Below, piece after piece: positions 6,820 through 8,577 of a stretch of DNA of 31,048 bases. The translations under genes and the position numbers were made by a program. The DNA is from Escherichia coli (GTDB lineage Bacteria > Pseudomonadota > Gammaproteobacteria > Enterobacterales > Enterobacteriaceae): the NCBI RefSeq assembly GCF_003334385.1, contig NZ_QOWN01000054.1, one strand, 5' to 3'. The notes under the pieces are model-generated. The model ran no database searches, was not told the origin of the DNA, and saw only the letters and a program-made list of their open reading frames with translations. Each line of letters opens with the position of its first letter. The first letter of the stretch is position 1.

Positions 6820-7515
6820 TCAGAACGTTTTCTCGTTGGGTTGCCAGCGACAGAAATCAGAGTTTGCCACTAACAGTAATTGCGAACCTTCGGGCGCTTC
6901 CAGCCATGCCACGCTGACATCAACAGAAGAGCGGCTCTGGCGGCGCTCGATATGCGCTATCGCCTGCGAATCTAAATCAGGTTTAATGGTTTGCCCTTCG
7001 CAGGTGGTCACGGTCTGTTCCATCGCATGCCAGCGCCCCTGGCGCAGCACGACTCTCCCCTGACGTAAGGCATCGCTAATCTGGCGGATCTGATCAGCAC
7101 GATAACGGTATAAATCGATTTGGTCGTTAGAAAGCTGCTGCTTTTCCCCATCGGATTCACGTTGCATAAAGCTCAGATCACCGCGATCGTCAAAACGCGC
7201 GCGAATATTCACCGGCGGTTTGCTGTAAACATTGATATTGATGAGCGTGAGGTTATCGCCCTGCCAGCGATACTCTCGCGTCGTGGTATCGCCACTGCGC
7301 CACGGGCTAAACACGGCAAGCAGATGCACATTATCGCCGCTGTCTTTTCGCCAGATGCGTACCGCGCCCTGGTCTTCAGCAAATCCACTGGCGGTAAAGG
7401 GAGGAAGTGAAGAGTTATGACTACAGGCAGTGAGAAGCAGAGCGCCAGCCAGCATCAATGATCGACGCCAGAAAGACAAAAGGGGTGAAACCACCCCTTC
7501 GTTAAAACTGTTCAC
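6820..7515 (-). CDS. yjaH: DUF1481-family putative lipoprotein
   Basis: ORF 6820..7521 (GTG start). It has a lipoprotein-like N-terminus (LAGALLLTAC lipobox). I prefer the second GTG at 7515 (231 aa); 7521 remains possible. Confidence 0.8.
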   Translation of the reverse strand: MNSFNEGVVSPLLSFWRRSLMLAGALLLTACSHNSSLPPFTASGFAEDQGAVRIWRKDSGDNVHLLAVFSPWRSGDTTTREYRWQGDNLTLININVYSKPPVNIRARFDDRGDLSFMQRESDGEKQQLSNDQIDLYRYRADQIRQISDALRQGRVVLRQGRWHAMEQTVTTCEGQTIKPDLDSQAIAHIERRQSRSSVDVSVAWLEAPEGSQLLLVANSDFCRWQPNEKTF

Positions 7516-7527
7516 TGCCACGCAATC

Positions 7528-7800
7528 TTACTTAACTGCGTCTTTCAGTGCCTTGCCAGAAACAAATGCCGGTACGTTAGCTGCGGCAATTTTGATTTCT
7601 TTACCGGTCTGCGGGTTGCGGCCAGTACGCTCAGCGCGGTGGTTCACTTTGAAGGTACCGAAACCAACCAGTTGTACAGCATCGCCTTCTTTCAGAGACT
7701 CAGTAATTGCAGCCAGAGTGGACTCCAGAGCAGCTTTAGCCTGGGTTTTGGACAGTTCTGCTTTCTCTGCAATTACATCAATCAGTTGAGTCTTGTTCAT
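7528..7800 (-). CDS. hupA: nucleoid-associated DNA-binding protein HU-alpha
   Basis: 90-aa [74 protein letters not shown]..., recognised as HupA. Confidence 0.97.
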
Positions 7801-7986
7801 AAGTTATCCTTACAATGTGTTTATCGCTTGCTAAGCATCGAGTGCGACGGAAATGCCAGAATAGCACTCTCCTGCATACACGCACCGATAGCCACTTTTT
7901 TTCGCCCCCCAAATGTAGACCAGACGGGGGGCGAAAGGGAAGACTCCAGGTACGACAAATCAGGCGTTAAATCACGTTTTCTGGTC

Positions 7987-8577
7987 TTATTGCTGAAAAA
8001 TTATACCAATATTGCTCTCACCCGCCTCACGCAGGTCTGCCCTAAGGCCTTTTATCAGCTCGATATCGCGTTCTTCGCACTCAGCTAAAAGTCGGAATAT
8101 TTCCCACTGAATGTCCCATTCTTGCTCTACAGCTGGGTTTTCTTTAAGCTCTTCATCGCTCATTTCGCGACCAGCCTGAGTCATTTCCAGCATCGCAACG
8201 GTCGTGATGGAGGTCTTACTCACTTCCACCGCGTGTTCGAGCGTTTCACCACTCAAACGCGAATGGACCAGTTCACTTAACGCCACGCAGGCATCGATTG
8301 CCGGATAAACGCCGTACAGATCGAAATCGTCGGCTGAAGGAATCGCTTCTTCAAATTTCTCCAGTTGGCTGTCGAAATTTACTTTTGCGTCTTTAACGGT
8401 CAGCGTTTCCCAGATGAGATCGAGAATGCGACGGTAAATTTGCCCATCACCAAAACCGGTTTGCTGGCAGAACATGGCGTAATTGGGGTACATGCGTTCG
8501 CATAAGCAAGCCATGAAAGTGACATGCTGCCAGCTTTCCAGGCGCTCCAGACGCAGATGAATTGGGTTTTGTAACAT
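7987..8577 (-). CDS. yjaG: DUF416-family protein of unknown function
   Basis: 196-aa ORF MLQNPIHLRLERLESWQHVTFMACLCERMYPNYAMF...; conserved position between nfi and hupA. Confidence 0.88.
   Translation of the reverse strand: MLQNPIHLRLERLESWQHVTFMACLCERMYPNYAMFCQQTGFGDGQIYRRILDLIWETLTVKDAKVNFDSQLEKFEEAIPSADDFDLYGVYPAIDACVALSELVHSRLSGETLEHAVEVSKTSITTVAMLEMTQAGREMSDEELKENPAVEQEWDIQWEIFRLLAECEERDIELIKGLRADLREAGESNIGIIFQQ

Follow-up and report, generated by a model that had tools for sequence, protein, structure and literature searches.

What do the proteins encoded on either side of hupA in Escherichia coli do? We addressed this question for yjaH and yjaG in a 31,048-nucleotide (nt) stretch of E. 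coli DNA from contig NZ_QOWN01000054.1 (hereafter the window, to which all coordinates refer), where the feature under study occupies positions 6820-8577 on the minus strand. The best joint explanation that we can offer, held tentatively and with rather less than even confidence, is that YjaH would be an outer-membrane lipoprotein made by read-through of a hupA terminator and that YjaG would be a protein-binding plug.

The feature contains minus-strand open reading frames (ORFs) at 6820-7521 (233 amino acids), 7528-7800 (90 amino acids) and 7987-8577 (196 amino acids). The product of the first matches Pfam PF07356 (DUF1481) over the full length of the model (E value 1.1e-72; residues 44-229, model positions 1-186 of 186), and its ORF, this match, RefSeq and an AlphaFold2 model identify it as yjaH, coding for a predicted DUF1481 lipoprotein. 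GTG 7521 opens its longest ORF, and RefSeq places the start two codons later, at GTG 7515 (231 amino acids). The product of the last matches PF04222 (DUF416), again as a full-length match (E value 2.1e-83; residues 5-192, model positions 1-187 of 188), and corresponds to yjaG, which encodes a cytoplasmic, acidic, all-helical protein. Between them, the product of 7528-7800 scored 201.1 bits against the NCBIfam equivalog model for HU-alpha (NF008023; curated cut-off 162), in agreement with its annotation as hupA, the gene for the nucleoid protein HU-alpha. The annotated order is zraP, yjaH, hupA, yjaG and nfi, with hemE and nudC further on. A 2-kb stretch matches E. coli chromosomes with 100% identity and occurs in 5,426 of 5,426 complete E. 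coli genomes. Positions 6820-8577 are core E. coli chromosome with three real minus-strand genes.

These results confirm the initial annotation of the locus, which had placed a DUF1481 gene (yjaH) and a DUF416 gene (yjaG) on either side of hupA. Its view that both ORFs are coding also holds, because each has hundreds of homologs and a confident structure model. It had further stated that no biochemical function could be assigned to either gene, and we came to the same result: NCBIfam, PADLOC and PHROGs models gave no match to YjaH or YjaG, and the literature searched with yjaG, yjaH, the DUF names and the structure codes held incidental mentions and no functional study of either gene. Because both families are catalogued, and without functional study in that literature, the finding itself is ordinary; these are already known genes of unassigned function in the best-annotated bacterial genome. 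The additions made here are hypotheses, which concern an SsdAI-like fold for DUF416, the confinement of DUF1481 and its fixed place after hupA, and a terminator embedded in the yjaH ORF.

A predicted hupA terminator inside the yjaH reading frame

The hupA gene ends with a TAA stop codon at 7528-7530, and the yjaH frame opens 6-12 nt later. Beginning 28 nt past this stop, and inside yjaH codons 8-18, lies a predicted intrinsic terminator of hupA (7469-7500, minus strand), which was detected by a terminator scan, by covariation and by folding. It consists of a 9-bp stem (GAAGGGGTG/CACCCCTTT) with a 4-nt loop, which together form a hairpin at 7500-7479, and of the T-rich tail TTTTGTCTTTCT. Proteus and two distant metagenomic loci are among 74 distinct sequences that all keep the GGGG...CCCC-TTT core unchanged. 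Across these sequences, the two inner stem pairs co-vary, with double-compensatory changes in 10 cells, and pairing is kept in 99.7% of 666 cells, as compared with 52-78% for slid controls; none of 500 shuffles did as well (0/500). Minimum-energy and centroid folds alike contain the hairpin. It has the make-up of an intrinsic terminator, namely a GC-rich stem-loop followed by a U-tract, with the structure kept in evolution. A second helix, in which the hupA end would pair with UUUUAAC, is not maintained by the variants in the alignment.

This arrangement leaves a mark on the protein. The '(K/E)G...PLL(F)' motif, seemingly a conserved N-terminus of YjaH, is the translated hupA hairpin, which shows that apparent conservation at the N-terminus of a protein family can come from an RNA hairpin that is read as codons.

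The hupA-yjaH junction (7503-7527, minus strand) carries, in the 74-sequence alignment, two in-frame yjaH starts (GTG 7519-7521 and GTG 7513-7515) and the block CAGTGAACAGTTTTA. In 73 of 75 loci, a GTG or ATG precedes the hairpin in frame with yjaH, the two exceptions being pattern-matching failures, and species losing one of the two adjacent starts retain the other. In the distant loci, the called yjaH starts fall 2-14 nt past the hupA stop. A scan of the hupA-yjaH region found no promoter-like sites. Since the hupA terminator lies within the yjaH ORF, YjaH would probably be made only from read-through transcripts: yjaH would have no transcript of its own and would be translated only from those hupA transcripts that extend past the terminator, with ribosomes probably re-initiating just after hupA. 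Translation restricted in this way would let YjaH ride at a low level on the very strong expression of hupA, and the placement of the terminator in the ORF predicts a YjaH level that is a fixed small fraction of hupA expression. We infer the read-through, the re-initiation and the true start of yjaH from sequence alone.

The block CAGTGAACAGTTTTA itself (7503-7517, minus strand) is nearly invariant across Enterobacteriaceae, synonymous positions included. Such conservation exceeds what protein coding needs, and an initiation region, RNA processing and a binding site are candidate roles. A conserved HU-YjaH fusion made by stop-codon read-through was excluded, as the two ORFs are in a shared frame in only 43 of the 75 loci. 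Public gene models that fuse HU and DUF1481 in one protein were encountered (P0002 and AFDB A0A6G0W136), one of them labelled as aphid (Aphis craccivora) and presumably a bacterial contamination. These fusions are most likely miscalls, favoured by the gap of only a few bases between hupA and yjaH.

As to the protein, YjaH is predicted to be exported and lipid-modified at Cys33. The codon of this residue (7423-7425, minus strand) closes a lipobox, L-T-A-C, that fits the pattern [LVI][ASTVI][GAS]C and is followed by Ser; Cys33 would be the first residue of the mature protein. It is invariant in an alignment of 30 homologs with identity down to 22%, as are Cys174 (codon 7000-7002, minus strand) and Cys224 (codon 6850-6852, minus strand), and the latter two cysteines, proposed as partners, suggest a periplasmic disulfide that would stabilise the protein. 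The lipobox pattern was located in 27 of the 30 homologs (in three it failed or chose another Cys), and in these 27 the next residue is S, G, Q, N, R, A or H, never D. In E. coli, an Asp directly after the lipid-modified Cys is an inner-membrane retention signal. By this sorting rule, the lack of Asp predicts an outer-membrane localisation for YjaH, which the Lol pathway would bring about.

The AlphaFold2 model of YjaH is confident (predicted local distance difference test, pLDDT, 93.2; predicted template modelling score, pTM, 0.82) and shows a signal helix, an eight-strand antiparallel sheet, a long helix and a small alpha/beta unit. No solved structure or assigned function was found for the DUF1481 family, and the literature mentions include the detection of a DUF1481 protein in a proteome table. 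The family is tiny, with 116 representatives, many of them fragments, among 1.84 billion proteins. It spans families of Enterobacterales and is confined there almost entirely, with one 19%-identical structural relative in Vibrio. Together, layout and sequence predict that YjaH is an Enterobacterales-specific outer-membrane lipoprotein.

The YjaG fold and its nearest structural neighbour

DUF416 proteins were found in Enterobacterales, Aeromonas, Shewanella, Marinobacter and Halomonas, and yjaG is a single-copy, slowly evolving core gene. All members are acidic, with net charges from -8 to -20; E. coli YjaG has an isoelectric point of 4.45 and a net charge of -20. The motif Y88-G-V-Y-P-A93 (8299-8316, minus strand) is invariant among Enterobacterales, Marinobacter and Shewanella members, and a conserved C-terminal motif, G186-x-S-N-x-G-I192 (8002-8022, minus strand), has invariant columns at G186, S188, N189, G191 and I192. 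Further invariant residues are R28, P31-N-Y33, W56, E76, P80, S120 and Q157, in clades that are 30-38% identical overall. The AlphaFold model is all-helical (pLDDT 88.7; pTM 0.89).

The initial annotation had allowed for a confident assignment of which it was unaware. The structural half of this exists for DUF416, in the form of two structural genomics crystal structures, 2q9r from Shewanella baltica and 3f7c from Marinobacter, both labelled as of unknown function; a functional assignment was not found. YjaG shares the fold of these two solved members. The structure prediction and fold search that the initial annotation had proposed were run and yielded a lead without establishing a function: the single nearest solved fold to YjaG outside DUF416, and its only structural neighbour there, is SsdAI (PDB 7jtu chain B), and the likeness is all-helical. 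SsdAI is the immunity protein of SsdA, a type VI secretion toxin that acts as a single-stranded DNA (ssDNA) cytidine deaminase; it is wholly helical and plugs the ssDNA cleft of the toxin, where Asp150, Glu152 and Phe154 mimic DNA (PMC7901873, PMC12494967).

The two proteins are 12% identical, and a profile built from 25 DUF416 sequences does not reach 7jtu_B even at an E value of 10. None of six clades examined carries a toxin or type VI secretion gene beside yjaG, and PADLOC returned no match for YjaG. By analogy with SsdAI, YjaG may act by binding a protein partner, whose basic, nucleic-acid-binding surface it would most likely occupy, and would then not be an enzyme; our confidence in this step is low. 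As YjaG fails the tests of an immunity gene, we say that it may work like a cleft plug, not that it is an immunity protein. In other literature, a yjaG::cat-sacB insertion served as a neutral linked marker, which indicates that yjaG is dispensable, and yjaG had a weak macrophage fitness effect in a Salmonella transposon screen (log2 -1.06).

Gene order, conservation and neighbouring features

The initial annotation had taken tight linkage to hupA, nfi and hemE as a sign of housekeeping roles, and had called for a synteny analysis across Gammaproteobacteria. Our scan of a genome collection returned Enterobacteriaceae only, at identities of at least 87%, and more distant gene contexts were taken from exact-protein look-ups and from chromosomes mislabelled as plasmids. 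The order nudC-hemE-nfi-yjaG-hupA-yjaH is invariant in 80 Enterobacteriaceae species wherever the contig reaches, with yjaG as the last gene of a tightly packed nudC-hemE-nfi-yjaG run. The same nudC-to-yjaH order was found in Proteus mirabilis and in one metagenomic locus whose YjaH is only 35% identical. In 76 Enterobacteriaceae loci, in Proteus and in two metagenomic loci (YjaH 30-35% identical), yjaH directly follows hupA; the pairing, in which the two genes are physically interlocked, is seen in every DUF1481 locus with upstream sequence available.

The linkage claim therefore stands for Enterobacterales, where the block is fixed, but outside this order yjaG has different neighbours. The Marinobacter gene shares 4 nt with the end of dcd (positions 6001-6004 of locus L082) and also has an aminotransferase gene as a neighbour. 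In Shewanella, the overlap of the DUF416 gene is 26 nt long (positions 6001-6026 of locus L084) and involves the 3' end of a gene for a barA-type sensor kinase; a DUF3319 gene is also close by. The neighbours in Aeromonas and Halomonas are unrelated. The overlaps in Marinobacter and Shewanella suggest that the gene is translationally coupled to a different upstream partner in each lineage. The link of yjaG with hupA and nfi holds only within Enterobacterales, and because its neighbours differ elsewhere, linkage says little about the role of YjaG.

Conservation divides the two genes. In 68 non-Escherichia Enterobacteriaceae genomes, in which the six block genes were compared, median identity was 94.1% for hemE, 91.1% for yjaG, 89.5% for nudC, 87.6% for nfi and 73.6% for yjaH, and yjaH had the lowest identity of the six in 67 of the 68. 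The housekeeping label thus suits YjaG, which is conserved about like the core enzymes, but not YjaH, the product of the fastest-evolving gene of the block.

Some features of the source records deserve mention. PLSDB 'plasmid' records of 4-5 Mb (H10-H12, H17 and H19-H21) carry yjaG with its surrounding chromosomal genes and have almost empty gene tables; these are chromosomes mislabelled as plasmids. Many Enterobacteriaceae drafts lack zraP and zraS (L013, L025, L028, L033 and about 30 others) and have a contig end about 4.4 kb downstream of yjaG, which suggests a shared assembly-breaking repeat, possibly a ribosomal RNA operon.

The yjaG-hupA spacer (7801-7986, minus strand), which we take as the hupA regulatory region, has a length of exactly 186 nt in 73 of the 80 Enterobacteriaceae loci, with conservation of 90% or more at most columns. 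It contains a GC-rich inverted repeat (7905-7935) whose loop is better conserved than its stems, whose mismatches are uncompensated and which has no U-tract on either strand. With no U-tract, stems less conserved than the loop and no compensation, this repeat was ruled out as a yjaG terminator or RNA element; the missing U-tract and the conservation of loop over stem make it look like hupA regulatory DNA, not like an RNA hairpin.

At the other end of the feature, the zraP stop (plus strand, 6816-6818) and the yjaH stop (minus strand, 6820-6822) converge one base apart. A single base between the stops leaves no room for terminators, so that the 3' transcript ends must overlap, and yjaH-zraP figures among the convergent transcript overlaps tabulated in a 2025 paper. 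Rfam placed no family within 6700-8700. Elsewhere in the window, matches above the gathering score were obtained for the small RNA sroH (17594-17754, plus strand), for a thiamine pyrophosphate (TPP) riboswitch ahead of thiC (11801-11901, plus strand) and for the P26 RNA family (27090-27151, minus strand).

Alternative explanations and known systems

Several points weigh against the joint explanation given at the outset. A TTG just 3' of the hairpin (7477-7479) opens a textbook lipoprotein signal peptide of 19 residues (MSFWRRSLMLAGALLLTAC) in 59 of the 75 loci and may be a second E. coli start. YjaG and SsdAI share no sequence or profile similarity, fold likeness among helical proteins can be convergent, and many cytoplasmic proteins are acidic. 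The invariant aromatic motifs of YjaG and the benzoate contained in 2q9r would fit a small-molecule site equally well. The TTG could mean that yjaH is an independent gene that starts there, the terminator simply ending hupA and the upstream 'coding' extension being an annotation artefact. The signal peptide is then ideal, the N-terminal '(K/E)G...PLL' conservation is exactly the translated hairpin, and several YjaH homologs are called from shorter starts. We consider this unlikely, however: the TTG belongs to the U-tract and is TCG in about 12 species, which are left without an adequate downstream start giving a charged signal peptide, and the upstream in-frame start is kept, with compensation between its two codons. 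Moreover, a start at the TTG would still require a yjaH mRNA that begins within the terminator or before it: the region showed no promoter-like site, and the hairpin and the core of the signal peptide lie only about 25 nt apart. Our preference stays with translation of yjaH from hupA read-through transcripts. A further rival, which we hold to be improbable, is that YjaH acts in outer-membrane or lipopolysaccharide-core biogenesis and that its place after hupA merely sets its expression; a network analysis predicted that YjaH acts with KDO2-lipid A pathways.

For YjaG, the strongest competitor of the cleft plug, still somewhat unlikely in our judgement, is a small-molecule-binding protein or enzyme whose motifs form an aromatic/carboxylate ligand pocket, the likeness to SsdAI reflecting a shared helical scaffold. 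It would account for the invariance of P31-N-Y33, W56, Y88-G-V-Y-P-A93 and G186-x-S-N-x-G-I192 between such divergent clades, for the enzyme-like slow evolution of YjaG and for the 2q9r benzoate, which is tabulated in a ligand survey that excluded crystallization reagents. Yet YjaG matches no catalytic family in Pfam or NCBIfam, and the authors of that survey caution that benzoate-like ligands from the host turn up commonly and in many cases tell little. A chromosomal 'orphan' immunity protein, protecting enterics from incoming SsdA-type DNA deaminase toxins, seems very improbable. In its favour, SsdAI is the nearest solved non-family fold, yjaG overlaps dcd in Marinobacter and, in Enterobacterales, adjoins nfi, whose product repairs deaminated bases, and enteric species reportedly resist being killed by DddA, a different deaminase toxin; but DddA is from another family and its inhibitor is unrelated. 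No toxin or type VI gene adjoins yjaG in any of the six clades, and YjaG has neither a PADLOC match nor sequence similarity to SsdAI. Immunity genes typically evolve fast and variably, the opposite of a single-copy core gene with 91% median identity. Between these two we would place, as quite improbable, a joint reading in which YjaG is a diverged, domesticated relative of inhibitors of the SsdAI type that serves as a housekeeping DNA mimic in a nucleic-acid cleft and, separately, the buried hupA terminator is a conserved device. The target of YjaG would then be an enzyme or DNA-binding protein that is conserved in the cell, for example endonuclease V, a nucleic-acid deaminase or HU. If true, YjaG would adjust how the cell deals with deaminated or single-stranded DNA, and incoming toxins of the deaminase type might be blunted as a side effect; the buried terminator would couple the amount of an envelope lipoprotein to how strongly the main nucleoid protein gene is expressed.

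Roughly one in three E. coli genes still lacks a function. By itself, the locus restates the annotation of two E. coli K-12 genes and matters little; its value is as a starting point. The analysis adds testable leads for both genes, whose functions we continue to infer. In particular, the fold neighbour of YjaG points to a partner with a nucleic-acid-binding cleft and to mutation-spectrum or deaminase-toxin phenotypes.

Set against known families and systems, YjaH is a plain member of DUF1481 (PF07356), with a full-length match to the family model, a conserved lipobox and two invariant cysteines, and YjaG does not differ from DUF416 (PF04222), of which it is the name-giving member. Unlike SsdAI, to which it has no detectable sequence relationship, YjaG has no adjacent toxin gene and is encoded by a slow single-copy core gene. 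Neisseria DMP12 and Haemophilus HI1450 are small acidic DNA mimics that bind HU or other DNA-binding proteins. With such mimics, YjaG has in common that it is an acidic cytoplasmic protein encoded, in Enterobacterales, beside the gene of a DNA-binding protein; the likeness is one of charge and gene position, and yjaG is not beside hupA outside Enterobacterales. The hupA-yjaH junction, in turn, resembles attenuated operons, which combine an internal terminator with partial read-through and translational coupling across a short gap. It shares with them a strong upstream gene, a conserved GC-rich hairpin with a U-tract, and a distal ORF (yjaH) that begins 2-14 nt after the upstream stop. It differs in that the terminator lies within the first 18 codons of the distal ORF, not between the genes, and in that read-through and coupling are here predictions.

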